From Gemmata obscuriglobus (lineage in GTDB: Bacteria > Planctomycetota > Planctomycetia > Gemmatales > Gemmataceae): 32,000 bases of DNA. Both the position numbers and the translations under genes were made by a program. Numbering within the stretch: position 1 is the first letter of the stretch; every line of letters starts with the position of its first letter. The notes below the pieces were generated by a model. It was given only the letters and a program-made list of their open reading frames with translations. It searched no databases and was not told the origin of the DNA. The stretch is taken from NCBI RefSeq assembly GCF_008065095.1, contig NZ_CP042911.1, forward strand, positions 7,860,001-7,892,000. Reading direction: 5' to 3'. Below are positions 15,343-32,000 of the stretch, piece by piece.

Positions 15343-15352
15343 AGCGATTCAG

Positions 15353-15435
15353 TGCGGGAGACAGGACTTGAACCTGCACAGGATTGCTCCCGCCAGCCCC
15401 TCAAGCTGGTGCGTCTGCCATTCCGCCACTCCCGC
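15353..15435 (-). tRNA. tRNA-Leu (anticodon GAG), 83 nt, CCA not encoded
   Basis: The reverse complement folds as a class II cloverleaf. Acceptor GCGGGAG/CTCCCGC. Anticodon stem CCAGC/GCTGG with loop TTGAGGG. Long variable arm. T arm GCAGG-TTCAAGT-CCTGT. Discriminator A. Confidence 0.92.
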
Positions 15436-17479: not shown

Positions 17480-18418
17480 TCACTCCCCGTCGAGCAGGTC
17501 CGTCCACCGCGGCACGAGAATCGTGAGGTCGGTGGTGTCGAACGCCCCGAGCAGTCGGTCCGTGCGGAGCGACAGTCGGTGCCGCAGCGGAACGCTCGGG
17601 AGCGCCGCGGGGACCACCTGCACCCCGCTCCCGGCCGACACCGCGATCGCGTGCTCGCCGGCCCGGACGACGACCACGCGGCGGGTCGCCGCGGCGCCCG
17701 GCAGGCCCACCCACCGGGCCGCGTCCGCCAGGGCCAGCGGCCGGCCGCGCACCGCGATGAGCTCGCGGACGTGCTCGTCCGCGGCGGCGACCGGGCTGCC
17801 GACGGGCACATCGCACACCTCATCCACCGCCCCCACGGGCAGGCCCAGCGCCACCGCCCGCCCGTTCGGGCCGGGCACCTCCGTGCGGGCGAACGTGAGG
17901 AGCCGGTCGACCCCGCCCGTACCGCCGGACCGGCGCACCTCGGGTCGCGGGGCCGGCCGTGCCGGGGGGGGCGGCCCCGGCTCGTGGGCGGGGTCGAGCG
18001 CGTCCACGTTCAGAAGGCCCACCGGCCCGTGCCCCGACAGCACGACCCCGTGCAGCAGCCGCGCCGCGGCGGCGCCCAGGCCGGGCGGGGGCGGGACCAC
18101 CTCCCCGGCCGACACGCGGGCCACCGGCGCGACCCGGTCCACCAACAGCCCGAACCGCCCGCGCGGCGTCGCGACCAGGATCACCTGGCCGCCCGCCCGG
18201 GGGACGGTCGGCCCGCCGGAGAACCACCACGCCAGGGGGAACACCGGCACCCCGGCGCCGCGGACGACGAGCCGGCCCGGCTCGGTCTCGGTCGGGGCGG
18301 CGGCCAGTTGCTCACCCCGCTCGACCCCGACCACCTGGGCCAGGTCGATCCCGACGGACGCGTCACCGACCGCGCACCGGAGCCAGTTCACCGTGTGGCG
18401 CGCCTGCACTGCGACCAT
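17480..18418 (-). CDS. cheW: Tandem CheW-CheW coupling protein (ChpC position)
   Basis: Two CheW-like halves: WLRCAVGDASVGIDLAQVVGVER..VILVATPRGRFGLLVDRVAPVARV, and RLLTFARTEV..LGLPVGAVDEVCDV..LIAVRGRPLALAD..RVVVVRAGEHAIAVS. ATG 18418 sits 1 nt after the cheB stop and is preceded by GGGGAGAAG. Confidence 0.75.
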   Translation of the reverse strand: MVAVQARHTVNWLRCAVGDASVGIDLAQVVGVERGEQLAAAPTETEPGRLVVRGAGVPVFPLAWWFSGGPTVPRAGGQVILVATPRGRFGLLVDRVAPVARVSAGEVVPPPPGLGAAAARLLHGVVLSGHGPVGLLNVDALDPAHEPGPPPPARPAPRPEVRRSGGTGGVDRLLTFARTEVPGPNGRAVALGLPVGAVDEVCDVPVGSPVAAADEHVRELIAVRGRPLALADAARWVGLPGAAATRRVVVVRAGEHAIAVSAGSGVQVVPAALPSVPLRHRLSLRTDRLLGAFDTTDLTILVPRWTDLLDGE

Positions 18419-18419
18419 T

Positions 18420-19487
18420 CTAACTTCTCCCCGCCAGCCGGGCCGCGATCCCGGCCGGCGTGTCACACTCGTCCACGGCCCCGAGCTGAACGGCCCGGAG
18501 CGGCATCCCGTACACGGCCGACGAGTCCTCGTCCTGGGCGAACGTGCGCCCGCCGCCGGCGCGGATGGCGGCCAGCCCCCGCGCCCCGTCCTCGCCCATG
18601 CCGGTCAGCAGCACGCCGGTGGCGCGGCCCCGGAACGCCCGGGCCGCGGACTCCATCGCCACGTCGATGGACGGCCGGTGCCCGCTCACCGCCGGGCCGC
18701 CGTTCAACCGCACGCGGCCGTCGGCGCCCAGCACCGCGTGGCGGTCCCCCGGGGCCACCAGCACCGTGCCGGGCTCGAGCGCCTCGCCGTCCCCCGCCTC
18801 GCGGACGGGGAGCCCGGTCTGCCGGGCCAGCAGCTCGGCCAGCGACCGCGTGAACCGGGCCGGCAGGTGCTGCACCAGCAGCACGCCGAAGGGGGGCGGG
18901 GCGGGGAGCCCGGCGAGCAGCTCGCGCACCGCCGGCGGCCCGCCGGTGGACGCCCCGATGACCAGCACCGCCGGGGCGGCCCGGTCCAGGGCGGCCCGGT
19001 CCGGGGCGGGGCGGGACCGGGGGGCCGCCGGCACACCGGGCGCCCCGCCCACGGCGGGGCGAGGCGGCAGGGACCGCACCGTTTTGACCCCCGCCGCGGT
19101 CCGCACCTTGGCGACCAGCGCCCGGGCGAACTCGGCCGGGTCCGTGTCGTGCCCCGGCGCGTACTTGGTGAGCACGTCCACCGCCCCCAGCGCCAGCCCC
19201 TCCACCGTCTGCCCCGCCGCCCCGCGGCTCAGCCCGGAGAGGAGAAGCACCGGGGTCGGGCGGGTGGCCATGAGCCGCTCCAGGGCCGCCAGCCCGCCCA
19301 TCCCGGGCATGTCCAGGTCGAGCGTCACCACGTGCGGGAGCAGGCCGGTGAGCCGCGCGAGGGCGGCCTCGCCGGAGTGCGCGAGCCCGGCCACCTCGAT
19401 CCCCGGGGCGGCCGCGAGGTACGCGGCCAGCGCCCGGCACACGGTGGGCGAGTCGTCCACGATCAGGACGCGGATGGGCGGTGCCAT
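18420..19487 (-). CDS. cheB: Chemotaxis response regulator protein-glutamate methylesterase
   Basis: REC domain (VLIVDDSPTV, TLDLDMPGMGG) plus esterase triad context: VIGASTGGPPAV (Ser), LLVQHLPARFT (His), LTGMGEDGARG (Asp). Confidence 0.93.
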   Translation of the reverse strand: MAPPIRVLIVDDSPTVCRALAAYLAAAPGIEVAGLAHSGEAALARLTGLLPHVVTLDLDMPGMGGLAALERLMATRPTPVLLLSGLSRGAAGQTVEGLALGAVDVLTKYAPGHDTDPAEFARALVAKVRTAAGVKTVRSLPPRPAVGGAPGVPAAPRSRPAPDRAALDRAAPAVLVIGASTGGPPAVRELLAGLPAPPPFGVLLVQHLPARFTRSLAELLARQTGLPVREAGDGEALEPGTVLVAPGDRHAVLGADGRVRLNGGPAVSGHRPSIDVAMESAARAFRGRATGVLLTGMGEDGARGLAAIRAGGGRTFAQDEDSSAVYGMPLRAVQLGAVDECDTPAGIAARLAGRS

Positions 19488-19494
19488 GGGTGAC

Positions 19495-22400
19495 TCACGG
19501 GCGGGCGCCGGGCGCGGCCGCGGAGCGGGACACCTGGCGCAGGATGTCGAGCAGGTTCTGGTCCTGGTACGGCTTGACCACGTACGCCGAGGCCCCGAGC
19601 GCCAGGGCCTTCCGCCGGTGCTTGTCCGCCGCCCGCGAGGTGAGCACGGCCACCGGCAGGCGCGCCAGGTGCGCGTCCGCCCGGACGGCGGCGAGCAGCT
19701 CGTACCCGTCCATCCGCGGCATCTCGACGTCCGTGAGAACCACGTCCGGCAGCGCCCCGCCGCGCTGGAGCAGCTCGAGCGCCTCGAGCCCGTCCTTGGC
19801 GACCGCCACCTGCCACCCGGCCCCGCCCAGCAGGCCCGACACCACCCGGCGGACGCTGGGGGAGTCGTCCACGACGAGCACCGTGAGGCCCGCCTTGCCG
19901 GGGGCCGCGGCCGGGGCCGGCCCGCCGGCCCCGCGGGCGGCCGGGGCCGCGCCCCCGCGGACCAGGTCGGCCGGGCTGAGGATGAGCACCACGCTCCCGT
20001 CCCCGAGCAGCGTCGCCCCGGACACCCCGGGCAGCCGCCGGAGCTGCTGGCCGAGCGACTTCACCACCACCTCCCGGCCGCCGACGAGCTGGTCCACCGC
20101 CAGGGCGGCGCGCCGGCCGGCCACGTTCAGCACGACCACCGGGGACCGGGGCGCCGCCTCCTCGTCCGCCCCGCGCAGCCCGAGCGCGCGCGCCAGCGGG
20201 ACCAGCGGGACCACCGCGGCCCCCAGCCGCAGCACCGGCGCCCGGCCCACCCGGTCCACGTCCTCGTCCCGGGCCCGCATGATGTGCTCGACCGCCTCCA
20301 GCGGGAGGGCGTACGTCTGGCCGGCCGCCCGGACCAGCAACCCCCGGATCACCGCCAGGGTCATCGGGATGCGGATGGTGAACGTGGTGCCCCGGCCGAA
20401 CGCGGAGGCCACCGCGACCGTCCCCTTCAGCGCCTCCACCTTGGTCTTCACCACGTCCAGCCCGACGCCGCGCCCGGACAGCTCGGACACCTCCTCGCGG
20501 GTGCTGAACCCGGGCCGGAACAGGTACTCGGGGAGCTGCTCCTCGGTCAGCGCGGCGGCCTCCTCGGCGGTGACCAGCTCGCGCCGCACCAGCGCCTCGC
20601 GCACCCGCTCGAAGTCGATCCCGCGGCCGTCGTCGGCGACCGTGAGGGCCACGTTGTTGCCCTCGTGCGCGGCCCGCAGGGTGATCCGCCCGGCGGCCGG
20701 CTTGCCCAGCGCCAGCCGCACCTCGGCGGGCTCCAGCCCGTGGTCCACCGCGTTGCGGAGCAGGTGCATCAGCGGGTCGGCCAGCGCCTCCAGCACCGTC
20801 TTGTCCAGCCCCGTCCGCTCCCCCTCCAGCACCAGCTCGGCCGGCTTGTTGGCGGTGCGGGCGGCGGTGCGGACGGCGCGGTGCAGCTTGGCCGCGGCGG
20901 TGGCCAGGGGCACCATCCGGAGCCGCATCAGCTTGTCCTCGGTCTCGCTCGTCAGCCGCGCCTGGCGGGTGAGCTGGCCGTCGAACTCGGACAGCAGGTG
21001 CCCGAATTCGCCGAACACGGTCTGCACGTCGGTGCTGGTTTCGGCCAGCTCGCGGGTGAGCAGGTGGAACTCGGTGTACCGGTCGAGCTCCAGCGCGTCG
21101 AACCCGTCGCCGTCGCCGTACCCGTCGCCGTACCCGCCGCCCCCGCCCGCGCGGCTGCCGGCCAGCGCGCTGGCCTCGTACCCGATGCTGAGCCGGTCGG
21201 TGACGCGCCCCAGCCGGGCGGTGGCGGGCCGGGCCTCGCCCAGCAGGCGGGCGAACTCGGTCACCCGCTGCTCGAGGGCCGTGCGGGTGATCACCAGCTC
21301 GCCGATCAGCTTGGCCAGCTCGTCGAGCCGCCGGATCGGGACCCGGACGTACGCCTCGGCGGCCTCGCGCGCCTCCTGGGCCGCGACCGCCGGCTCCGGC
21401 TCCGGCTCCGGCTCGGCGGCCTCCGCGTCGGCGGCGGGCGCCGGCGCGGCCGGCGGGGGCGCGGCGGCGCCCAGGGCCGCCGTCAGCCGGGCGTGAAGGT
21501 CGGCGAACCCGCTCGGGGCGCCCGCCCCTTCGACCGACTCGGCGATCAGGTCCGCGCCGGCGATCAGCAGCTCGACCTCCCCGGCGGTGGCGACCCGCGC
21601 GCCTTCGTAGTACAGGTCGAGCAGGTCCTCCATGCGGTGCGCGAGCTGGGTCACCTGGTGCAGCCCGACCAGCCCGGCGGTGCCCTTGAGGCTGTGGGCG
21701 GCCCGGCGGATCGCCTGCCACCGCTCGCCGTCGGCCGGGTCCTCGCGCGCCTCGGGGAGCAGCGTCACCAGCGTCCGGATGTGGTCCTCGGACTCGGCCC
21801 GGAACACCGCCATCAGCTCGGGCGTGATGCCGGCGCGGCCGGCGCCGCGCGGCTCGGGGGCGGGGGCCGGCTTGACGACCGGGGCCGCCGCACCGAAGTC
21901 CGGCGGGGCCAGGTCCGCGCCGGGCCCCAAGGCCGCGAAGTCCGGCGGGGCCAGATCGGCGCCCGCGGGCGGTGCCCCGAAGTCCGGCACGTCCGGAGCC
22001 GGCCCGGGTGCGGTCTCAAAGTCCGGCGGGTCAAGGGCGCCCTCCGCCCACGGGGGGGCGGCGCCCGGTCCGGCCGGCGCGCCCTCCGGGGGGACGGCCG
22101 GGCGGTCCGGGCCGCGGCCCTCGTCCCCGGTGCGGCCGTCCGCGGCCGGCGCGGCGGGCGGCGGGGCCGGCGGGCCGGACCGGGTCCGCGACCGCAACTG
22201 CTGCGCGTGGCCCAGCGCGGCCGCGGCCAGTTCCGGCTGCCGGTCCGCCCCGCCCCGCGCCCCGGCGAGGTACGCTTCGATGTGGGCGATGCTGCCCTCG
22301 ATCCCGTCCAGCAGCTCCGGCGTGGCCTCGTCCGGCTCGTGCATCAGCAGCTCGACCACCTCCTCCAGCGCGAAGGCGAAGTGGCTCAGCTCGGCCAGGC

Positions 22401-22572
22401 CCACCATCGACGACGCGCCCTTGATGATGTGGACGCACCGGTACGCCTCGTGCAGCACCTCCGGGTCGCCCGGGCCGGCGCGCAGCGTCGCCACGCCGGC
22501 CCGGATGGCCGGCAGGTAGCCGGCCGCCTCGGCGACAAACCCCAGGATCAGCTCGCGGTTCAGTTGCGACAT
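19495..22572 (-). CDS. cheA: Hybrid CheA histidine kinase: Hpt-Hpt-dimerisation-HATPase-CheW-REC (ChpA-like)
   Basis: Hpt1 AYRCVHIIKGASSMVG. Hpt2 RRAAHSLKGTAGLVG. Dimerisation region VRVPIRRLDELAKLIGELVITR. N box HLLRNAVDHG. G1 ADDGRGID. G2 GRGVGLDVV. CheW-like domain LLVRAAGQTYALPLEAVEHI. C-terminal REC (VLVVDDSPSV, LTDVEMPRMDG, YVVKPY). Confidence 0.93.
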   Translation of the reverse strand: MSQLNRELILGFVAEAAGYLPAIRAGVATLRAGPGDPEVLHEAYRCVHIIKGASSMVGLAELSHFAFALEEVVELLMHEPDEATPELLDGIEGSIAHIEAYLAGARGGADRQPELAAAALGHAQQLRSRTRSGPPAPPPAAPAADGRTGDEGRGPDRPAVPPEGAPAGPGAAPPWAEGALDPPDFETAPGPAPDVPDFGAPPAGADLAPPDFAALGPGADLAPPDFGAAAPVVKPAPAPEPRGAGRAGITPELMAVFRAESEDHIRTLVTLLPEAREDPADGERWQAIRRAAHSLKGTAGLVGLHQVTQLAHRMEDLLDLYYEGARVATAGEVELLIAGADLIAESVEGAGAPSGFADLHARLTAALGAAAPPPAAPAPAADAEAAEPEPEPEPAVAAQEAREAAEAYVRVPIRRLDELAKLIGELVITRTALEQRVTEFARLLGEARPATARLGRVTDRLSIGYEASALAGSRAGGGGGYGDGYGDGDGFDALELDRYTEFHLLTRELAETSTDVQTVFGEFGHLLSEFDGQLTRQARLTSETEDKLMRLRMVPLATAAAKLHRAVRTAARTANKPAELVLEGERTGLDKTVLEALADPLMHLLRNAVDHGLEPAEVRLALGKPAAGRITLRAAHEGNNVALTVADDGRGIDFERVREALVRRELVTAEEAAALTEEQLPEYLFRPGFSTREEVSELSGRGVGLDVVKTKVEALKGTVAVASAFGRGTTFTIRIPMTLAVIRGLLVRAAGQTYALPLEAVEHIMRARDEDVDRVGRAPVLRLGAAVVPLVPLARALGLRGADEEAAPRSPVVVLNVAGRRAALAVDQLVGGREVVVKSLGQQLRRLPGVSGATLLGDGSVVLILSPADLVRGGAAPAARGAGGPAPAAAPGKAGLTVLVVDDSPSVRRVVSGLLGGAGWQVAVAKDGLEALELLQRGGALPDVVLTDVEMPRMDGYELLAAVRADAHLARLPVAVLTSRAADKHRRKALALGASAYVVKPYQDQNLLDILRQVSRSAAAPGARP

Positions 22573-22591
22573 CGCCCGTCTCTGTGTGTGC

Positions 22592-23416
22592 TCACGCGGT
22601 TCGGCGGTACAGCCAGGCGTCCGGCAGGCGGACCAGCTCCAGCCCCGGGGTGTCGAGCCCCAGCGCCTCGGCCGGCCCGAGCACCAAACAGCCCCCCGGG
22701 GCCAGGGCCGCGGTGAGGCGCCGCAGGATCTCGCCCCGCGCCTCGGGGCGGTAGTAGATCAACACGTTTTGGCAGAAGATCACGTCTTGGGGCGGCCGCG
22801 CCGGGCCGCCCCCGAGCAGGTCGCACGGCTCGAACCGGGTGACCGCCCGGAGGTCCGGCCCCACCCGGTACCCGGCCGGGGCCGCCTCGAAGAACCGGCG
22901 CAGCACCCCCGGGGGCACCGCCGCCAGCTCGTGCGCCCGGTAGCACCCGGCGCGGGCGCGCTCCAGCGCCGCGGGGCTCCGGTCCGTGCCCACCACCTCC
23001 ACCTGCCACCCGGCCAGCCCGGGGTCCGACAGGCAGGCGATCCCCAGCGAGTACGCCTCCGGGCCGGTCGAGCACCCGGCGCTCCACAGCGCGACCCGCG
23101 CGCCCCCCTCCCGCCGCCGCCGCTCGCGGGCCGCCGGCAGGGCGAACCCGGTGAGGGCCGCGAACGCGGCCGGGTCGCGGAAGAACCGGGTGTCCCCGTT
23201 CAGCAGCCCGTCGAGCAGCCGGTCCCACTCGGGGGCCGCCGGGCACGCCGCCAGGTGGCGCGCGTACTCGGCGGGCGCCGCGAACCCGCACGCCCGGGCC
23301 CGGGCGGCCGCCACCTCGCCCAGGACCCGGGCCCGCGCGCCGCCCAGGGACATCCCGGAGCGCTCCTCGACCGACTCGCGCCACCGGGCGAACTCCGCGT
23401 CGGTCAGCTCGACCAT
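22592..23416 (-). CDS. cheR: Chemotaxis protein methyltransferase
   Basis: Motifs FFRDPAAF, SAM-binding LWSAGCSTGPEAYSLG, and VIFCQNVLIYY. GGAGGG lies before the ATG. Confidence 0.92.
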   Translation of the reverse strand: MVELTDAEFARWRESVEERSGMSLGGARARVLGEVAAARARACGFAAPAEYARHLAACPAAPEWDRLLDGLLNGDTRFFRDPAAFAALTGFALPAARERRRREGGARVALWSAGCSTGPEAYSLGIACLSDPGLAGWQVEVVGTDRSPAALERARAGCYRAHELAAVPPGVLRRFFEAAPAGYRVGPDLRAVTRFEPCDLLGGGPARPPQDVIFCQNVLIYYRPEARGEILRRLTAALAPGGCLVLGPAEALGLDTPGLELVRLPDAWLYRRTA

Positions 23417-23437
23417 GACGCCCTCCGGGCGCGGCGG

Positions 23438-25744
23438 TTACGCGAGTTGCTTCTTCCGGGTCCCGTTCTTGCCCGCCGGGGCGGCCGGCTCGGCCTGCAC
23501 CATCATGTGCGCGGGGAGCCGGAACGCGCTGAGCGAGCCGCGCAGGTCGTCGGCCAGCCGGGCCAGCTCGTTCACCGCCTCCGCCGTCTGCTTGGTCCCG
23601 GCCGCCGTGCTCTGGGTGATCTGGCTGACGTCGGACATGGACCGGGCCAGCGACTCGGACCCGCGGGCCTGCTGCTTGGACGCCAGCGAGATGGACTGGA
23701 TCAGGTCGGCCAGTTTGGCCGCCACGTCCTCGATCTCGCCCAGCGACTGGCCGGCCTGGTTGGCCACCTTGGACCCGCCGACCACCTCCTGGATGCTCCG
23801 CTCCATCGCGGCCACGGCCTCGTTCGTTTCGCCCTGGATCGCCCGCACCAGCACGCTGATCTTCTTCGTCGCCTCGGTGGACCGCACGGCCAGCCGCTCG
23901 ACCTCCTCGGCGACCACCGCGAACCCGCGGCCCGCGTCGCCCGCCGCGGCGGCCTGGATCGACGCGTTCAGGGCCAGGATGCTGGTCCGGTCGGCGATGT
24001 CGTCGATGAGCTGGACGATCTGGCCGATCTCCTGCGAGGTCTCGCCCAGCCGCTTGATCCGCTTGGCCGTCTCCTGGGCCTGCTCGCGGATCCGGTTCAT
24101 GCTGTCGATGGTGTTGCGCACGGCGGTGTTGCCCTGCTTGGCGTTCTGGAGCGCCTGCTGGGCGACCGTGGTGGAGACGGCCGCGTTGTCGGACACCTGC
24201 TGGATGCTGGTGGCCATCTCGTCGATGGCCGCGGACATGTTCACGATCTGCTCGGCCTGGGTCTCGGACCCGCCGGCCAGGTGCTCGGCCGACGAGTGGA
24301 TCTCGGTCGCGGCGCTGGACACGTGGCGCGTGGCCGACTGCACCCGGCTGATGATCTTGCGGAGCTCCTCGACCGTGTAGTTGAACGAGTCGGCGATGGC
24401 CCCGGTGATGTCGGCGGACACCTCGACGTCCTTGGTCAGGTCGCCGGTGCCCACCCCGCTCACCTCGTCCAGCAGCTTCATGATGGACCGCTGGATCTCC
24501 TCCTTCTCGCCCCGCGACTGGATCAGCACCAGCGTGTTGTCGAGCATCTTGTTGAGCGAGCCGGCCATCGCCCCGAGCTCGTCCTCGGACGCGACCGCGA
24601 CGCGGGTCGTGTAGTCGCCCGCCTCGATCTTCGCGAACGTGGCGCTCAGCCCGTCGACCTGCCGGGTGATGCTGCGGGTCACGACGAGCACCACGACGCC
24701 CACGACCATGAGCCCGACCGCGATCCCGGCGATCGAGGTCCAGTTGGTGTACCGGTCCCGCGACACCCGCTCGGTCAGCAGTTCGACCAGGAGCGGATCG
24801 ATGGCGTCGAACAGCTTGTACGCGGCGGCGGCGGCGGCGTTCGCCTTGTCGTAGTACACGCCCTGCGACTGCTTCACGGTGTCCGCGCCGAGCAGCTCCT
24901 CGCGGACCAGAGCGACGTACGCGTCCACCTGCCGGGTGTGCTCGTCGAACGCGGGCCGGAGGGCGGCCGCCAGCCTCGGGTTGTACCGGACCGCGCTGTC
25001 GATCTGGCGGCGGATGTCGCTCCGGGCGTCGTCGATCTGGCTGAGCAGCACGGCCAGATAAATTCGCTCGTCGAGGGTCAGCGTGTTCTTCAGGTCGTTG
25101 TTGTTCGCTTGCGCGCGCAGGAGCACGGCGTTGGCCTTGCCGCGGATCTGGCTGATCGCGTCCGCCTCCGTGAGCGCCTGCTGCGTGAGGATGCTCTGCA
25201 GGTAGTAGGCGTCCACCTGAGAATCGAGGGCAAGGCCGGCGAGTTCGGCGATGTCCCGGCTCAGCTCGAACACCTTGGCGATCAGCGCGTTGTGCCGCTG
25301 GAAGCTGACCGCGTCCTCACCCACCTGGTAGCCGGCAACGGCGGCCCTCAGTGCGCCCCACTCGTCACGAACGGCGGCCACCCGCCCGGCCAACTTGAAC
25401 TCGTCCTTATCGGCAGCCAGGGCCGCGTCGAGTTCGTTGAGGCTTGCGTCAACGTCGGCCGCCGCCCGGTTCCGCTCGGCGGTCCGCTCGGCGGCCCCGT
25501 TGAGAATCTCGCGCGTGTTCGCCCGGTGCTGGGTGAGCTGCCGGCTCAACTGTTTGATCGGCCGGAGCATCTCCAGGGCCCGCAGCTCCCGCTTGGTGTT
25601 GTCGATCGCGTCGTTGCTCTTGCGGACCACGACCGAGGTGAGGAACACGATCGGGAACAAGAACGGGACGGCGATGAGGGCGCACTTCTGCCAGACCTTG
25701 AGGCGCCGGAAGCTCACCAGTTGGGGCAGTCGGATCTTGGCCAT
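23438..25744 (-). CDS. Methyl-accepting chemotaxis protein with a large helical periplasmic sensor (PilJ position)
   Basis: TM1 [19 protein letters not shown]. About 290-aa helical ectodomain. TM2 [23 protein letters not shown] domain ([24 protein letters not shown]). Conserved signalling tip [43 protein letters not shown]. Confidence 0.93.
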
Positions 25745-25832
25745 CGGTCGTCACCTCGAATGGGTTGCGGCGGGCGGGGGTGGCCCCAGGCGCCCGGGCT
25801 CGGAAGTAGTTCGTGTGGTTCGGGGGCGCCGG

Positions 25833-27617
25833 TCAGGCGGGCGCGGTCGTGTCGGCTTCCGCGGCGGCCAGCAGCTCCGCCGGCGCGAGGCGGTGGACCA
25901 GGCCGCCCGGGTCGACCGTGACGCCGGTCAGGAACCGCGCGAGGTGCGCGTCGGCTGGCGCGGCCGGCGCCGCGGCGTCCAGCGCCCGGATGCCGGCGAC
26001 CTCGTCCACCAGGAGGCCCAGCGGGCTGTCCCCGGCAGCGCCGTGCATCACGACCAGCCGGGCCGCGGTGCCCGCCGCGGGCAGGCCGAGCAGGCCGGCC
26101 AGGTCCGCCACGGTCACCACGTCCCCGCGGACGTTCGCGACCCCGGCGACCCACCCGGGCACCCCCGGGAGCGGGGTGAGCGGGAGCCGCTGGCGGACCT
26201 CGCGGACGCTCTCGATCGGCAGGGCGAGCGTGCGGCCGGCGGCCCGGACGACCAGGTGCCGGTCCCGGCCGGTGCGGCGGGCCGGCGCGGCCTCGGCGGC
26301 GCCGAAGCCGGCGCCCGGGGCGAGCGGGGCGGGGGCCAGCCCGGCGAGCAGCTCGGCCAGGGACGCCCCGGCCGCCGACCGGTTCACCTCGCAGGCGAGC
26401 GCGCGCTCGGCGGCGGCGGCGGGCGCGCCGGGAGCCGTGACCGCCGCCGTGAGCCGCAGCCGCCCGGGCGCGAACCCGGCCAGCCGGGCGGTCTGGCGCC
26501 ACGATCCGCCGGGCGGCAGGTCCGCGGCCGGCCACTCGACCCGGTCGCCGGCGATCGAGAGGGTGCCGCCGGCCGAGGCCGAGCGGAACAGCAGTTCGTC
26601 GGGCACCGAGAGGGTCACGCGCGCGCCGGCGGCGGGCGCGGCCCCGCGGTTCGTGACCAGCACCTCGAAGGTCGCCTCGTCGTCGGTCGCGATCCGGTCG
26701 GGGGCGCCGAGTTCGACCGCCAGTTCGACCGGCGGCGGCGCGACCTCAATGACCGCCCGGCCCGCGGGGCCGTCCGCGGCGGCCGCCTCCACCGCCCACC
26801 GGACCGGGTGCCCCGCCGCGGTCAGCAGCAGCTCGGCCGCCCGGGACTCGCCGGCGGCCAGCGGCGGCAGGGCGACTTCTGCGACGCACGGGCCGCCCGG
26901 CCCGTCGGGGCGTGCCCCCACCCGGACCTCGCCGCACGGGGCGGCGCCGGTGTTGGTCACGGTGAGCGGGAGCGCCGGGCGGCCGGCGGGGTCGAACGCG
27001 ACCGGGCCGCAGGACAGGGCGAGGGCAGGCGCCGGGACCGGGCGGAACGCGACCAGCGCGGTCCGCGGGGCCGCGACGAGCGGGGCCGTTTCGGGGGTGA
27101 TCGGGAACCGCACCGCGAGGGTGACGGCGGCGCCGGGCCGGAGCGCGCCCAGCTCCCAAACGAGCCCGGCGGCGGTGCGGCGCGACGGGCGCGTGGCCTG
27201 GACCCGCGGGACGCCCCGCGGCAGCGGGAACTCGACCCGGCACTCGTGGGCGACCGGGCCGGCGGGGGCCGTGACGGCGAACCGGTACAGCGCGTCGCCC
27301 GGCGGGTCCGTCGGGGCGTGTTGCACCGCGAGCGGGGAGACCGCCCAGTCGCGCGGCGCGGGGTCGCGCGGCGGCGGGGTCCGCACCGGCTGCGGCGTTT
27401 CGGTCAGGGCGGTGGGCGGCGCCGGCGGCTCGCCCGCGGTCGCCCCCGCGGGAGCGGCGGGCGGCGGGACCGGTTGCGGGCCGGGGTCCGCCGCGCCCGA
27501 CGGCGCGGCACCGGGATCGGTGGGATCGGACGGCAGGCCCGGCAGCGGCAGGCCCGCGAACAGCGGGAGGTCCGCGCCGGGGGCGGTCAGCCAATCCGGG
27601 AGATCGTTCGGCGTCAC
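25833..27617 (-). CDS. cheW: CheW-domain protein with about 450-aa N-terminal proline-rich and DUF11/CARDB-like repeat extension (PilI position)
   Basis: C-terminal residues about 452-590 form a CheW fold (HLVVRAAGRTLALPIESVREV..VAGVANVRGDVVTVADL..LGLLVDEVAGIR). Residues about 100-410 contain three Ig-like repeat candidates; the clearest is VELAVELGAPDRIATDDEATFEVLVTNRGAAPAAGARVTLSVPDELLF..GDRVEWPAADLPPGGSWRQTARL. GTG start. No signal peptide or TM helix is visible. Confidence 0.85.
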   Translation of the reverse strand: MTPNDLPDWLTAPGADLPLFAGLPLPGLPSDPTDPGAAPSGAADPGPQPVPPPAAPAGATAGEPPAPPTALTETPQPVRTPPPRDPAPRDWAVSPLAVQHAPTDPPGDALYRFAVTAPAGPVAHECRVEFPLPRGVPRVQATRPSRRTAAGLVWELGALRPGAAVTLAVRFPITPETAPLVAAPRTALVAFRPVPAPALALSCGPVAFDPAGRPALPLTVTNTGAAPCGEVRVGARPDGPGGPCVAEVALPPLAAGESRAAELLLTAAGHPVRWAVEAAAADGPAGRAVIEVAPPPVELAVELGAPDRIATDDEATFEVLVTNRGAAPAAGARVTLSVPDELLFRSASAGGTLSIAGDRVEWPAADLPPGGSWRQTARLAGFAPGRLRLTAAVTAPGAPAAAAERALACEVNRSAAGASLAELLAGLAPAPLAPGAGFGAAEAAPARRTGRDRHLVVRAAGRTLALPIESVREVRQRLPLTPLPGVPGWVAGVANVRGDVVTVADLAGLLGLPAAGTAARLVVMHGAAGDSPLGLLVDEVAGIRALDAAAPAAPADAHLARFLTGVTVDPGGLVHRLAPAELLAAAEADTTAPA

Positions 27618-27656
27618 GTGCGGCCCCGAGGGTTCGGCGGAAGGGTGCCCGGCCCC

Positions 27657-27686
27657 TTGATAATTATCGAATAGTAATTTTAAAAA
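27657..27686 (-). promoter_or_regulatory. AT-rich (4/30 G+C) intercistronic spacer with the perfect palindrome GATAATTATC; possible internal promoter or operator
   Basis: TTGATAATTATCGAATAGTAATTTTAAAAA lies directly between the cheY-like stop (27687-27689) and the GC-rich leader of the CheW-fusion gene. The palindrome is at 27659-27668. Confidence 0.3.
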
Positions 27687-28052
27687 TCAGTACAACCGAG
27701 TCACATTTGTGATCAACTCGTCGCTCGCGAACGGCTTGGTGAGGTACGCGTCGGCCCCCTGCTTCATGCCCCAGAACTTGTCCGCGTCCTGGTTCTTGGT
27801 GGTCAGCATGAGCACCTTGATGTGCTGCGTCTCGGGCGCGGACTTGAGCTGTCGGCACACCTGGTAGCCGTTCTTCTTGGGCATCACCACGTCCAGCACA
27901 ATCAGGCGGGGCTGCTCGCGCCCGGCCTTCTCGATGGCCTCGTCGCCGTCGGCCGCGGTGATCACGCGGTACCCCTTGGCCTGGAGCGCGGAAACCACCA
28001 CCCGCTGTTCGGTGGGGCTGTCGTCTACCACGAGGATCGTGTCGTTCGGCAT
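27687..28052 (-). CDS. cheY: Single-domain CheY-like response regulator (PilH position)
   Basis: Start is placed at ATG 28052 (MPNDTILVVDDSPTEQ), preceded by CCGGAGA. Phospho-acceptor context IVLDVVMPKKNG, then LMLTTKN and AYLTKPF. Confidence 0.9.
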   Translation of the reverse strand: MPNDTILVVDDSPTEQRVVVSALQAKGYRVITAADGDEAIEKAGREQPRLIVLDVVMPKKNGYQVCRQLKSAPETQHIKVLMLTTKNQDADKFWGMKQGADAYLTKPFASDELITNVTRLY

Positions 28053-28067
28053 CGAAGCATCTCCGGT

Positions 28068-28108
28068 TGAAAGAACAAAAGGCGGGTCGCCCGCGCCGGC
28101 CGTCCGCC
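28068..28108 (-). terminator. Terminator/attenuator-like GC hairpin plus T tract between the first and second operon genes
   Basis: The minus strand reads GGCGG-ACGGCCGGC-GCGGG-CGA-CCCGC-C followed by TTTTGTTCTTTC. Outer arms are 28104-28108 / 28081-85, with a nested GCGGG/CCCGC 5-bp stem. It lies 14 nt after the upstream stop and is immediately followed by the cheY RBS. Confidence 0.35.
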
Positions 28109-28121
28109 GGCGCGGCACGGG

Positions 28122-29402
28122 TCAGCCCGGCGGCGCCTTCGCGATCGGGGCCAGCCGGGTCACGGTTTCCAGCAGCTTGTCGGCCTCGAACGGCTTGGTC
28201 ACGTAGTCCGCGGCCCCGACCCAGCGGCCGTGGAGCTTGTTCAGCAGCCCCGTCTTGCCGGTCAGGAACACGACCGGCACGGTGGCCGTCTCGGCCGTGG
28301 CTCGCAAGAACTTGCACAGGCCGAACCCGTCGATCCCGGGCATGTTGATGTCGAGTATGAACAGCTGCGGCGGCCCCGAGTCGCGGACCAGCCGGGACGC
28401 CTCCTCGGCGCCGTGCGCGAGGACCACCGAGTACCCGGCGGCGGTGAGGAGGCTGGACACCATCATGCGCACCGTGGCGCTGTCGTCCACGACCATCACT
28501 TTGGGGCCGGGGGCGGGGGCCGGGGCCGGGGCGCTCTCGGCGCGGGCCGCGCCGGCGCCGGTCTCCCGCTGGGCACTGAGGAACCGGACCGCGTCGGCGC
28601 GCCACGGCGGCCCCGGCGGCGCGGCCTTTTGGACCGCCGCCTGAAGCGCCCGGACCGCGAAGTCGGTGTAGCCGAGGTTCAGGTAAGCGAGGCCCAGGGC
28701 GTGGGCCGTGTCGGCGCTGGGGTCCGTGGTCCAGGCGGCCTTGAGACGCCGGGCCGCGGCCTCAACGAGTGCCCGGTCGACCCCGGGGGCCGGGGCGTCG
28801 AACAGTTCGGGCCGGTCGAGGGCGGTCACCGCCCCGCACCCCGGGCAGGTGGTGGTGACGGTGTCGTCGGCCGCCGCGGAGTGCTCGCACAGCGGGCAGC
28901 GCCAGGGGGGGGCCGGGGCGGGCCCGAGCCGAGCCCGCAGCTTCGCCAGCCCGGCCTTGGCCTGGGCGCTGGCGGGGTTGCGCTTGAGCACCTGTTCGAG
29001 GAACGTGATCGCGGTGCCCGGGTCGTCGGTGACCCCGGCGCGCCACAGCCAGGCGGCCTCGTTGGTGGCGTCCAGTTCCGTCGCCTCGGTGAGCAGTCGC
29101 GCGGCCGCCGCCCGGTCGTTCGCCCGGGCGGCCTCCACCCCGGCCCGGAACACGGCCTGCGGCAGGGCCGCGAGGGCGGTCGGGTTGCTGGCGTTGAGGT
29201 TCAGCGTGGCCCGGATCCCGATCAGCGCGTCGACCGGCTTTTCCGCGGTGCTGGCGTACCAGAGCCAAGCGGCTTCGTTCCGGGGGTCCCGCTCAGTGAT
29301 TTCCCCGAACAGCGCGTGCGCGCGGGCCTTCTCGCCGCCGTGGGCGGCCTTCATGGCCTCGCGGAGCAAGTGGACCAGCTTTGGCGACATTGACGGCTGC
29401 AT
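28122..29402 (-). CDS. TPR-like repeats + CxxC..CxxC zinc ribbon + C-terminal REC response regulator (PilG position)
   Basis: 426 aa. Two DP(R/T)NEAAWLW TPR-like signatures. Zinc-ribbon motif WRCPLCEH..TTCPGCGA (28836-28898). Ala/Pro linker. REC domain at 28125-28502 (VMVVDDSATV, FILDINMPGIDG, VVFLTGK, YVTKPF). Confidence 0.88.
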   Translation of the reverse strand: MQPSMSPKLVHLLREAMKAAHGGEKARAHALFGEITERDPRNEAAWLWYASTAEKPVDALIGIRATLNLNASNPTALAALPQAVFRAGVEAARANDRAAAARLLTEATELDATNEAAWLWRAGVTDDPGTAITFLEQVLKRNPASAQAKAGLAKLRARLGPAPAPPWRCPLCEHSAAADDTVTTTCPGCGAVTALDRPELFDAPAPGVDRALVEAAARRLKAAWTTDPSADTAHALGLAYLNLGYTDFAVRALQAAVQKAAPPGPPWRADAVRFLSAQRETGAGAARAESAPAPAPAPGPKVMVVDDSATVRMMVSSLLTAAGYSVVLAHGAEEASRLVRDSGPPQLFILDINMPGIDGFGLCKFLRATAETATVPVVFLTGKTGLLNKLHGRWVGAADYVTKPFEADKLLETVTRLAPIAKAPPG

Positions 29403-29407
29403 AGCAA

Positions 29408-29486
29408 GTCAAATTCGTTTATTTTTTGTTTCAGACTGTCGGGAATACCGTAAGCATGCGGGACGAACCGAACGTGGTCAAATTCG
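29408..29486. repeat. Direct 10-bp repeat GTCAAATTCG x2 in the operon upstream region
   Basis: Copies at 29408-29417 and 29477-29486, 69 bp apart, inside the AT-richer stretch immediately upstream of the first operon gene. Confidence 0.6.
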
Positions 29487-29518
29487 CATGGGTGTTTATT
29501 GCCGGTCGAATTATGGCA

Positions 29519-29533
29519 GTGAAATAATTTCAC
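29519..29533. promoter_or_regulatory. Perfect 7-1-7 palindrome GTGAAAT-A-ATTTCAC; candidate operator
   Basis: Read directly from the sequence. Lies 117-131 bp upstream of the operon start codon (29402). Confidence 0.3.
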
Positions 29534-30120
29534 CTGTGGTCCGAGAGTGAGGTGTTACGCGATGTGGCGTTCTGCGCCCCGGAGCGCGGCACCGACACGA
29601 ACAGTCGCCGCGCGTGTCACTCGTGCCGCGGCGGCGGCCGCTCAAGGGCCTGCGGACCGGGCGCGCGGCGTTTTTGAGTTAGGCCGGGGGGCGAGCCGAC
29701 CGTCGTTACACGTCCCAAGGGCGGGAGCAAAACGTTGCCGTGAACGGGTTCGTGTTGCGCGCGAATTGGTGTTGGGTACGTTGCGGCGTGTGGATCCGTG
29801 CGCAGCTCTTCACGTTCGGAGCTGATCGGGGAGTTGGCGAGTGTCGGGTGACGTGACGGCCGTAACCAGTTCCGATCTCTCGGGCACGCGGCCGAGCGGG
29901 TCGAGGCGGGGGCACCCCGAGCTATCCCTGAGAACCTCTCGCTTCGACGCAACAACGCAATACCGATATGATATTATAAATAAATATTTATATACACGAT
30001 CGAAATGTAAAAATTATCTTACCATATCCAGTTAATCGACGGGGATGACTTCTCCCCCGATTCGGCGTGACGGCGCCCCAGAAGGCGCTCTCGCTCACAT
30101 CCCGCCCCAACAACCTCACG

Positions 30121-30438
30121 CTACCGTCCCCGAACCCGCACAGCAGCCCTCCCGGATGAACGATTGCGGGACTGGCGAGTCAGAGGGATGACGCCTACGG
30201 CAAGAAGGTCTGGGTCGACATTATTGCCAGCTACGTTCGGCCAAGCATCTTTATTCGCACCGGCGAAGTTGTGGGAGGCTCGCACCACTTGTTTGAGCGC
30301 GTTCGTGTTCCGCACTCGCTGAGCCGCTTCCCGGACCTTTTGAACGGCGGGCAGCAACAAAGCAAGGAGCATGGCCAGAATGGTAATTGCGATGAGCAAC
30401 TCAATCAGAGTAAATGCCGGCCTCAATTGACGAGCCAT
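30121..30438 (-). CDS. Truncated DUF1559 / prepilin-type N-terminal methylation-domain protein (probable gene fragment)
   Basis: N-terminus [36 protein letters not shown] matches the type IV pilin-like leader and helix of planctomycete DUF1559 proteins. The ORF is only 105 aa, versus about 300 expected, and ends in an Arg-rich tail. Confidence 0.6.
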
Positions 30439-30867: not shown

Positions 30868-30978
30868 GGCTCACTAGGGATACGGCGTAAGACTACGCCG
30901 CTTCCTGACTGATCCGGCCGCACTCCCGAACGTCGAGAGGTAAGCTTAACTGCTTCGGCAGAAAGGAATTACAAACAG

Positions 30979-31051
30979 TGCGCCCGCTCGGATTCGAACC
31001 GAGGACCAAGCGGTTAAAAGCCGCTTGCTCTACCAGCTGAGCTACAGGCGC
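30979..31051 (-). tRNA. tRNA-Lys (anticodon UUU), 73 nt, CCA not encoded
   Basis: The reverse complement is GCGCCTG-TA-GCTC-AGCTGGTA-GAGC-A-AGCGG-CTTTTAA-CCGCT-TGGTC-CTCGG-TTCGAAT-CCGAG-CGGGCGC-A. The cloverleaf is regular, with one G-U pair in the acceptor stem. Confidence 0.93.
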
Positions 31052-31335: not shown

Positions 31336-32000
31336 CTACGTAACTCCGATAAGTCCCTTGGCCATTGCCGGGTCCATCTGGAGCCGCTCGATCGCCTCCG
31401 GGCAACTCACCGCCTTGACCTCACGCCACAGGTGCACCACGGCGTTCCGCAGCGCCGCCAGCACCTGTGGTGCGTGCCCCATGCGCACACGACACGCGTC
31501 CTCGCCCAGTGTCACGTCACGCACGTAATGCAGTTCGTTCTCGATGCGCCAGTGCGTCCGCACATGGTTCAGGAGTGTGGCCGCATCCGCCTTCTCGGCC
31601 GACAGGCTCGTGATGCCGAAATGCACTTCGACCGTCGTTTGGCCTCGGACCGTCCGCTCACGCGTCAACTGGAAGCCCTGCTTCACCCCCGCCCACGTCG
31701 GCGAGCACGTCAGAATCGAGGTCGTTTGCAGCGTCCGCTTCTCGATGCGGCCGTGACCCTTATCGACGGTCGTGGCGATGCGGCTCGGGGCGGGCGGAGG
31801 CCGATCCCCAGGGGGAAGTGGCCGCCGCGATCGATCGGGCGGCGGTCTCGAAGGCGAACCCGGCTCGGATGTCGATCCCCAATCCGGGTTGGTTGTCCTT
31901 CACCGTGAGCACGTAGTCGCCGCCGGCCCCGACCACCTCCTCGGCCAGGTCTCGCTGGCAGAACATGGCGTCGCCGACCACGACCTTCCCTCGCAGCGGC
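31336..32000 (-). pseudogene. ISAs1-family transposase, frameshifted; N-terminus beyond the right edge
   Basis: Two frames must be joined. The upstream frame reads GKVVVGDAMFCQRDLAEEVVGAGGDYVLTVKDNQPGL (31760-32000, open at the window edge). The downstream frame reads TVDKGHGRIEKRTL..THWRIENELHYVRDVTLGEDACRVRMGHAPQVLAALRN (to stop 31336). The frame change lies near 31790-31860. Confidence 0.85.

Follow-up and report, generated by a model that had tools for sequence, protein, structure and literature searches.

A 32,000-nucleotide stretch of Gemmata obscuriglobus DNA (contig NZ_CP042911.1, positions 7,860,001 to 7,892,000; referred to here as the window, whose numbering is used throughout) carries, on the minus strand between positions 17480 and 29402, eight co-directional open reading frames (ORFs), each with a strong Pfam match. 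By sequence they encode a two-pass receptor, two adaptors, a kinase, the enzymes CheR and CheB, and two separate receiver (REC) proteins. We lean towards interpreting them as a complete chemosensory pathway that is probably functional, adapts by methylation and follows the Pil-Chp/Tax layout, with a polar or surface machine as its likely target. The operon belongs to a lineage that extends across Planctomycetota, Acidobacteriota, some Chloroflexia and delta-type metagenome-assembled genomes (MAGs), and whose nearest relatives appear to be the proteobacterial Pil-Chp systems. Non-flagellar chemosensory pathways are understood only in a handful of Proteobacteria, in Myxococcus and in cyanobacteria; in the conserved version found in Gemmata, the predicted output protein is of a different type and the adaptors are oddly decorated.

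Architecture and conservation of the operon

The genes, and the segments within them that are discussed below, are located as follows.

28122–29402, minus strand: gene 1 (pilG position), tetratricopeptide repeat (TPR)–Zn-ribbon–REC protein, 426 aa (Pfam, alignment, AlphaFold2 (AF2) model)
28836–28898, minus strand: zinc ribbon of gene 1 (residues 169–189)
27687–28052, minus strand: gene 2 (pilH position), stand-alone CheY-like REC, 121 aa (Pfam, gene calls)
25833–27617, minus strand: gene 3 (pilI position), three Ig-like domains–CheW, 594 aa (Pfam, alignment, AF2 model)
26388–27344, minus strand: Ig-like domains of gene 3 (alignment, AF2 model)
23438–25744, minus strand: gene 4 (pilJ position), transmembrane 40H methyl-accepting chemotaxis protein (MCP), 768 aa (Pfam, NCBIfam)
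22592–23416, minus strand: gene 5 (pilK position), CheR methyltransferase, 274 aa (Pfam)
19495–22572, minus strand: gene 6 (chpA position), Hpt-Hpt-CheA-CheW-REC hybrid kinase, 1025 aa (Pfam, motifs)
21895–22026, minus strand: PDF repeats of gene 6 (motif positions)
18420–19487, minus strand: gene 7 (chpB position), CheB with REC and methylesterase domains, 355 aa (Pfam, NCBIfam, motifs)
17480–18418, minus strand: gene 8 (chpC position), CheW-CheW tandem adaptor, 312 aa (Pfam)

The domain content and gene order that a preliminary description had given for these genes were borne out by Pfam throughout, and Pfam, alignments and models agree with its statement that three of the proteins carry domain additions and that the kinase has only two Hpt domains. 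As to the order pilGHIJK-chpABC claimed there, the part from pilG to chpB matches a Pseudomonas locus (L066), and a CheW gene following chpB is seen in a locus from Pseudomonadales (L036). From gene 1 to gene 8, the intergenic gaps measure 69, 69, 88, 21, 19, 7 and 1 nt; this range of 1–88 nt agrees with the spacing of 1–90 nt noted before and is consistent with an operon. The starts of gene 2 (28052) and gene 8 (18418) were taken from the gene calls in three public assemblies, in which gene 2 codes for 121 aa; its mechanical ORF extends to 28118. Because the domain matches are strong and orthologues occur in the same order in other genomes, the eight-gene arrangement does not consist of chance high-GC ORFs. 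Judged from motif positions, all expected catalytic and phospho-acceptor residues are intact across the operon, and the receivers have all kept their acidic pocket, Thr and Lys.

The protein encoded by gene 1 consists of TPR-like helical repeats (residues 7–158), a CxxC...CxxC zinc ribbon (169–189), further TPR-like helices (210–288) and a canonical receiver (301–417; Pfam REC 302–414) with D306, D307, D351, T381 and K403. Its AF2 model, with a pLDDT (predicted local distance difference test score) of 88.8, comprises nine TPR-like helices, the zinc ribbon, four further helices, a linker and the receiver. Both the receiver residues and two NEAAWLW motifs are invariant in an alignment of 13 orthologues. 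The zinc ribbon mentioned in the preliminary description is real, as C169, C172, C186 and C189 are likewise invariant in the 13 orthologues, and in 70 more distant relatives the four Cys and the receiver active site show ≥90% conservation. When residues 1–295 were searched against 1.84 billion representatives (E ≤ 1e-10), 505 clusters containing this module were recovered; in 66 of the 70 best, the module is fused to a REC. Longer proteins of this type (830–930 aa) are encoded at the head of Pil-Chp-like operons of Pyrinomonadaceae (Acidobacteriota), with the zinc ribbon in all three of them and the NE[SA]AWLW motifs in two. Domain scans revealed neither a DNA-binding nor an enzymatic domain in the gene 1 product, which, as a putative output protein, therefore must act by binding. 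A PDB sequence search returned receivers only. In the complete-genome record CP025958.1, where the operon region corresponds to 124–146 kb, gene 1 is called as two ORFs (L085, 8217–9496) coding for a TPR part of 191 aa and a REC part of 235 aa; the gene is intact (426 aa) in the window, the draft assembly and a Logan assembly, and the split call is due either to a frameshift error or to a strain difference.

Gene 2 codes for a receiver with a Pfam Response_reg score of 95 bits and a canonical active site, whose best matches beyond Gemmataceae are the second REC proteins of Pil-Chp-like loci. In the gene 3 product, a disordered, Pro-rich segment (residues 1–88) precedes three Ig-like beta-sandwich domains of the DUF11/CARDB type (92–410), a linker and the CheW domain (452–588); the Pfam matches are DUF11/CARDB at 307–395 and CheW at 454–586. 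A hydropathy scan of this protein detected neither a transmembrane segment nor a signal peptide, and a fold search gave generic tandem Ig-like matches without a functional lead. Since the receptor is the only one of the eight proteins with hydrophobic segments, the extensions of the gene 1 and gene 3 products are cytoplasmic. Orthologues with the DUF11-CheW fusion, 566–757 aa long, are encoded by further Planctomycetota, among them a relative of Isosphaera. Within the poorly conserved N-terminal segment of the gene 3 product (27344–27617, minus strand), a PDW motif at residues 7–9 is invariant in seven orthologues. Gene 8 contains two CheW stretches according to Pfam, the first of them divergent. 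A CheW-CheW tandem follows the kinase, either directly or past CheB, in every planctomycete-type cluster, short ones included; strong relatives of gene 8 itself were confined to Gemmataceae loci among the loci fetched.

In the receptor (gene 4), two hydrophobic segments at about residues 20–40 and 330–360 flank a sensor region of ~290 aa, followed by HAMP and MCPsignal domains. The sensor region matched no Pfam family even at a permissive threshold, and the protein lacks a C-terminal pentapeptide. According to NCBIfam, residues 421–742 align to residues 236–557 of P. aeruginosa CtpM with no length change, whereas the same alignment with E. coli Tar pairs 339 residues with 312. The length register, equal to that of the 40H receptor CtpM and 27 residues longer than that of the 36H receptor Tar, assigns the protein to the 40H class, to which PilJ also belongs (PMC13599512). 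Gene 5 codes for a CheR with a Pfam score of 154 bits and no TPR extension. In the kinase encoded by gene 6, a Pro/Ala-rich linker joins Hpt1 (H48) to Hpt2 (H293), after which come an extended dimerisation domain, a HATPase domain with N, G1 and G2 boxes all present, CheW/P5 and REC (D948); Pfam detected no P2 domain. The disordered linker between the Hpt domains contains four PDF motifs (PPDF, VPDF, PPDF, PPDF; residues 183–226) at a spacing of 13–14 residues, which hold all four of its Phe residues, a count reached in none of 2000 shuffles. P-x-F enrichment was also found in the linkers of orthologues P0007, P0008, P0010 and P0046, but not in those of P0002 or P0020. Judging from the sequence, the PDF repeats could provide docking sites in place of the P2 domain that the kinase lacks. 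Many homologues of the kinase show faint FimL_C matches. The CheB motifs GASTGG, VQHL and GMGEDG, around the Ser, His and Asp, are present in the gene 7 product.

Synteny, whose absence from relatives would have spoken against the preliminary description, and the three fusions are conserved in other Gemmataceae and in planctomycete-like contigs. A Gemmata sp. MAG (L081) contains all eight genes with all three fusions, and the closest kinase, with 69% identity, is encoded on a metagenome contig that carries at least the seven first genes before the contig ends. The operon occurs with an extra small ORF after gene 1 on a more distant planctomycete-like contig, and two further contigs comprise TPR-REC, REC, DUF11-CheW, MCP, kinase and CheW-CheW, with CheR and CheB absent. 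As the three fusions recur across relatives, they are lineage traits and not accidents of a single genome. On the contigs of P0020, P0035 and P0046, which carry more distant planctomycete-like versions of the operon, an additional ORF of 180–209 aa without a Pfam match occupies a conserved position between TPR-REC and REC (L088, 3473–4015), and the receptors of these operons have dCache_1 or Tll0287-like sensors in place of the unclassified Gemmata sensor. The Gemmataceae MAG GCA_019636445.1 harbors a short paralogous cluster (L083, 8539–13713) coding for an MCP of 470 aa, a kinase of 932 aa and a CheW-CheW protein of 305 aa, and lacking receivers, CheR and CheB. Its kinase, of the architecture Hpt-Hpt-CheA-CheW-REC, is 52% identical to that of the window and forms the sister clade with 100% bootstrap.

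Relationship to known chemosensory classes

The preliminary description had placed the operon in the type IV pilus (Tfp) class of chemosensory systems. A scan of genome contigs with a single protein mainly hit a generic receiver motif and yielded few planctomycetes, along with loci that were useful as references. For comparison, 83 loci were scanned with the window's own domains and grouped as Pil-Chp, alternative cellular function (ACF)-type, flagellar (F)-type and cyanobacterial. The order REC, REC, CheW, MCP, (CheR), multi-Hpt CheA-REC, (CheB) is found in Pil-Chp loci of beta- and gammaproteobacteria (L066, L027), and the same succession of REC, REC, CheW, MCP and kinase occurs in cyanobacteria (L045, L050), a Chloroflexia MAG (L014) and Acidobacteriota (L004, L005, L021). 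Fourteen other loci are of the ACF type, with the order CheW, CheR-TPR, CheW, MCP, CheA-REC, CheB and then a large REC protein. Similarities of the individual domains, expressed as median phmmer bits of the window domains against each group, likewise point to Pil-Chp for several components: the MCP signalling domain scored 282 bits against Pil-Chp, 114 against ACF-type and 94 against F-type loci, and the values in the same order were 42, 26 and 26 for Hpt1, 55, 26 and 31 for Hpt2, and 108, 75 and 48 for the stand-alone receiver. For the kinase core they were 272, 207 and 275.

Features of the Tfp class that are present in the operon comprise the neighbourhood of two CheY-like genes, CheW and MCP before the kinase, the multi-Hpt hybrid kinase devoid of P2, and the PilJ-like 40H receptor. 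In IMG/KEGG-type annotation, the orthologues of genes 1 and 6 are named PilG and ChpA, respectively. Kinases with multiple Hpt domains and a REC are not exclusive to the Tfp class, however, since they are described for ACF systems too (PMC10782961). Against group profiles, the kinase core scored 431 bits with Pil-Chp, 370 with F-like, 290 with CheR-TPR ACF, 246 with cyanobacterial and 234 with Azospirillum Che3-type ACF sequences, the ACF reference sets being small (7 and 3 sequences) and collected by similarity to the query.

That last circumstance is one of several points that weigh against an interpretation modelled on Pil-Chp; the classification of the kinase in a curated scheme is another. 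Berry et al. (2023) tabulated MiST classes for 13,673 kinases (Table S2 of PMC10782961); the portion used here comprises every ACF row and the first of the F1 rows, the Tfp rows lying outside it. The sole G. obscuriglobus kinase in the ACF rows is GEMOB_RS25450 of draft assembly GCF_000171775.1, a protein of 977 aa with a single Hpt, dimerisation, ATPase, CheW and REC domains (PMC10782961). Contig ABGO01000278.1 of the draft stops 121 codons into the kinase gene of the window, and the genes on either side of the kinase have RefSeq accessions from different series, in keeping with two contigs. A 5'-truncated kinase, ~48 residues short, would lose Hpt1 and thus fit the single Hpt listed for GEMOB_RS25450. 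No close G. obscuriglobus paralogue was present among the best 120 kinase homologues. No exact match was found for the 977-aa C-terminal product of the kinase, and cluster look-ups returned product lengths of 1025, 831, 811 and 772 aa, 977 not being among them. Very likely, GEMOB_RS25450, as described in these rows, is the kinase of the window, which would hence carry an ACF label. All other planctomycete kinases of the Hpt-Hpt-...-REC type in these rows, namely those from Fimbriiglobus (F. ruber), Zavarzinella, Isosphaera and Paludisphaera among others, are likewise given as ACF (PMC10782961). Acidobacteriota are mentioned only four times in these rows, the two entries shown being kinases without a receiver (PMC10782961), and the hybrid kinases of Pyrinomonadaceae, as far as this portion of the table goes, appear to be classed outside ACF. 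An assignment of the kinase to ACF instead of Tfp, which the preliminary description had named as speaking against its own proposal, thus probably applies, to the kinase only and by way of the label that the table portion gives for GEMOB_RS25450.

Other components also weigh against the Tfp class. The catalytic domain of CheB scored 74 bits with ChpB-type and 121–123 bits with F-type and ACF-type enzymes (median phmmer), and phmmer similarity of CheR and of the first CheW does not separate the classes. In a neighbour-joining tree of kinase cores, a clade of Planctomycetota, Acidobacteriota and Chloroflexia stands beside Pil-Chp, but the deep nodes are devoid of bootstrap support. Four-cluster bootstrapping grouped the planctomycete sequences with Pil-Chp in 151 of 200 replicates when CheR-TPR ACF sequences served as reference, and the result flipped (178/200) with the long-branched Azospirillum Che3-type group as ACF reference. 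Tree and four-cluster tests were dropped as a means of class assignment, as deep branching depends on the reference. A scan with E. coli Hof/YggR/PpdD queries, positive only at one beta-proteobacterium, detected no ORF resembling PilB, PilT, PilC, PilM, PilN or PilQ in the window or less than 10 kb away from the planctomycete and acidobacterial loci; genes with a pilin signal (N_methyl) were the only ones of this kind present. The PDB fold matches of the gene 1 model are generic TPR superhelices and receivers and leave the target unindicated. As the preliminary description had stated, no output target is encoded in the window; nothing there points to one. The proposed Tfp assignment is thus only partly supported: gene order and the similarity of receptor, Hpt domains, receivers and kinase core speak for it, and the ACF label of the probable same kinase, the type of CheB and the lack of nearby pilus genes speak against it. 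A Pil-Chp-like mode of action is a reasonable view. Membership in the Tfp class together with pilus control is not an established fact, and the curated scheme probably contradicts it as far as the kinase is concerned.

Predicted signalling and competing explanations

By analogy with the prototypes, the receptor would control autophosphorylation of the kinase, whose Hpt domains would hand phosphate on to four receivers. Two of these, the stand-alone REC and the REC of the kinase itself, might function as antagonist or phosphate sink in the manner of PilH/PixH, and the REC domain of CheB would close the adaptation loop. TPR modules serve as scaffolds that bind peptides. In the predicted output, the TPR–Zn-ribbon–REC protein, phosphorylation would alter what the TPR scaffold binds, so that the signal would leave the pathway via protein-protein contact rather than through transcription or enzymatic activity. 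As target, a polar or surface machine is most likely: type IV pili or fimbriae, or attachment or polarity functions. That the pilus itself is the target is less likely than not; control of type IV pili by this operon is an analogy and not a finding. Two cases from other bacteria offer suggestive parallels for an output that acts by binding. In Synechocystis, PixG contacts the pilus motor through its N-terminal PATAN domain, and the two Pix regulators bind the motor and are antagonistic (10.1101/2021.06.11.447907; PMC11181946). In Pseudomonas, PilG is coupled via FimL to the TPR motif of FimV (10.1101/116954).

The Pil-Chp system of P. aeruginosa shares all eight domain families in identical order. 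Both systems start with two receivers and possess a receptor of the 40H class, a hybrid kinase that has several Hpt domains and a C-terminal REC but no P2, a pair of CheW-type adaptors, and both CheR and CheB. Among the sampled loci outside planctomycetes and acidobacteria, Pil-Chp loci provide the nearest relatives of the MCP and Hpt domains, and are about level with cyanobacterial loci for the receivers and with flagellar-type kinases for the kinase core. The Gemmata kinase, with two Hpt domains and 1025 aa, contrasts with the many Hpt domains and the ~2500-codon frame of the Pseudomonas locus. Unlike Pil-Chp, the Gemmata operon has a 295-aa TPR–Zn-ribbon module on the first receiver, three Ig-like domains on the first adaptor, a CheW-CheW tandem as last adaptor and a CheB that is not ChpB-like; chpD/chpE, fimL, fimV, cyaB-like and pilus genes are absent nearby, and the curated hidden Markov models, in the rows covered, do not put the probable same kinase in the Tfp class. 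Synechocystis Tax1/Pix (pixG-pixH-pixI-pixJ-pixL) and other cyanobacterial Tfp-type systems have in common with it a first gene for a receiver with a big N-terminal interaction domain, a plain receiver, CheW, MCP and hybrid kinase (L045, L050), but that N-terminal domain is PATAN and not TPR–Zn-ribbon, the cyanobacterial loci recovered lack CheR and CheB, and cyanobacterial kinase cores are distant from the Gemmata core (233–246 bits). By analogy, Tax1/Pix may serve as the best model for the action of the TPR-REC protein. Myxococcus Frz also combines a hybrid CheA-CheY kinase with control via protein-protein interactions at the cell poles. It employs the cytoplasmic receptor FrzCD, the CheR-TPR protein FrzF and the dual-receiver protein FrzZ, and its genes are arranged in a different order; none of the Frz-specific features is present in the Gemmata operon.

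The operon might instead represent an ACF-class system that shares only its gene order with Pil-Chp and whose TPR-REC protein controls a non-motility process such as aggregation or holdfast formation, budding-cycle or swarmer-sessile differentiation, or envelope or polysaccharide synthesis. We regard this as a serious possibility, albeit a doubtful one. The MiST-derived ACF labels of the probable same kinase and of planctomycete kinases of the same architecture, as listed in the rows covered, argue for it, as do the grouping of CheB with ACF-type and F-type enzymes, the lack of pilus genes within 10 kb, the occurrence of multi-Hpt and REC kinases in the class (PMC10782961), and a Prokka-type annotation that names the kinase after FrzE. 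ACF systems such as Che3 of Azospirillum and Rhodospirillum, CheR-TPR clusters and Wsp indeed resemble the Gemmata operon in their hybrid CheA-REC, sometimes with two Hpt domains, and in the type of CheB. The class is broad, however, and the identity of GEMOB_RS25450 with the window kinase is itself inferred from the break in the draft contig. The gene order differs from that of the 14 ACF-type loci recovered, with their CheR-TPR, a second CheW before the MCP and a large REC protein, the Gemmata CheR has no TPR, and the receptor, both Hpt domains, the receivers and the core of the kinase each come nearer to Pil-Chp than to ACF-type loci; a predicted output protein without an enzymatic or DNA-binding domain is a further point against it. 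That the pathway is an additional flagellar chemotaxis system which steers the flagellated swarmer cells of Gemmata is highly improbable. Apart from the existence of such swarmer cells, the kinase core, which scores near-equally with F-type and Pil-Chp kinases (275 vs 272 bits; 370 vs 431 by profile), and the ordinary type of CheB and CheR would accord with this idea, but a hybrid kinase with two Hpt domains, a C-terminal REC and no P2 does not, and the window contains no CheZ, CheC, CheX, CheD or flagellar gene nearby. Moreover, the MCP signalling domain is far from the sampled F-type receptors (94 bits), and neither KEGG-type nor MiST-type labels give an F class.

A different question is whether the eight-position match to pilGHIJK-chpABC arose partly by convergence, a core of REC-REC-CheW-MCP-CheA having gained CheR, CheB and the second CheW independently; the "exact order" would then tell less about function than it appears to. 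CheR and CheB are patchy in planctomycete clusters and missing in the majority of loci from Acidobacteriota, cyanobacteria and beta-proteobacteria, the CheB does not resemble ChpB, and the strong relatives of the CheW-CheW protein were Gemmataceae-only among the fetched loci. Nonetheless, we consider partial convergence rather unlikely, as CheR also lies between MCP and kinase in an acidobacterial locus (L002), which fits ancestry with repeated loss, and as CheB and CheW follow the kinase at the same positions in both lineages. Less probable still is that the operon belongs to a distinct lineage across Planctomycetota, Acidobacteriota and a few other groups, neither classical Tfp nor classical ACF, whose hallmark is the TPR–Zn-ribbon–REC protein; this protein would dock to short repeated motifs such as the PDF repeats of the kinase linker and the PDW motif of the Ig-CheW adaptor, in replacement of P2, and be released on phosphorylation. 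The released protein would act on a target new to chemosensory control, such as attachment or the polarity of budding, and the baseplate of the array would be unusual owing to the Ig-like domains of the CheW adaptor. The favoured explanation remains a methylation-adapting pathway on the Pil-Chp/Tax layout. A partner of the TPR–Zn-ribbon–REC protein, once found, would assign a function to hundreds of related proteins of soil and freshwater bacteria. G. obscuriglobus is genetically manipulable and has an unusual budding cell cycle.

Annotation and genomic surroundings

The planctomycete origin suggested for the DNA is correct, as the products are 100% identical to G. obscuriglobus proteins. The genes are annotated in several public genomes of this species, the kinase is included in MiST-based surveys, and the names PilG and ChpA are found in IMG; as a recognisable and already databased member of a well-known signalling family, the operon is only moderately surprising. 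The novelty lies in recognising a conserved multi-phylum variant with a distinctive putative output protein and decorated adaptors, and in the conflict between annotation schemes. Public names of the kinase comprise "Gliding motility regulatory protein" (FrzE-derived), CheA and "Hpt domain-containing protein", the receptor is named PctC, and one record of G. obscuriglobus lists gene 1 as SphR. Depending on the pipeline, one and the same kinase is thus called ChpA-like, FrzE-like, ACF or "Hpt domain-containing", and SphR is a mislabel of the putative output protein. The literature searched described no Pil-Chp-like system in Planctomycetota, no TPR–Zn-ribbon–receiver protein and no experimental work, in line with the earlier remark that no system of this kind has been characterised in the phylum.

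The flanking DUF1552 and PSD/PSCyt genes of the preliminary description were confirmed, and so was a DUF1559-type N_methyl gene, which is truncated. Features around the operon are listed below.

29403–30120: probable operon promoter region, non-coding, with lower G+C and no credible ORF
30121–30438, minus strand: truncated N_methyl gene (DUF1559/SBP_bac_10 type), 105 aa
13478–14497 (plus strand), 15352–15435, 30978–31051 and 31336–31981 (all minus strand): tRNA and transposase features

Promoter and terminator scans of the window gave nothing usable; one weak sigma-70-like match on the minus strand (30011–29983) carries no evidence of function. A gene with a prepilin-type methylation motif lies 0.2–3 kb upstream in all three Gemmataceae loci examined (window; L081, 1–448; L083, 6140–7905), and such N_methyl genes are absent near the more distant planctomycete clusters examined. 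N_methyl/DUF1559 genes are very numerous in these genomes and common in the phylum, and the presence of one next to the clusters may be due to chance.

The operon and two small neighbouring genes are located between tRNA-Leu and tRNA-Lys genes; a DDE transposase flanks them at one end, and transposase fragments do so at the opposite end. Most operon genes have a G+C content of 0.74–0.82, compared with 0.60–0.70 in the flanks; at third codon positions, it amounts to 0.93–0.98 in the operon and 0.93 in neighbouring planctomycete-specific genes. Horizontal transfer, as suggested by G+C content, insertion sequence elements and tRNA genes, was considered and found to be unsupported, since the excess of G+C resides at codon positions 1 and 2 and is attributable to proteins rich in Ala, Pro, Gly and Arg. 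Near the other end of the window, two long, overlapping candidate ORFs without Pfam matches, at 97–3150 (plus strand, 1017 aa) and 1220–2623 (minus strand, 467 aa), have a G+C content of 0.73.

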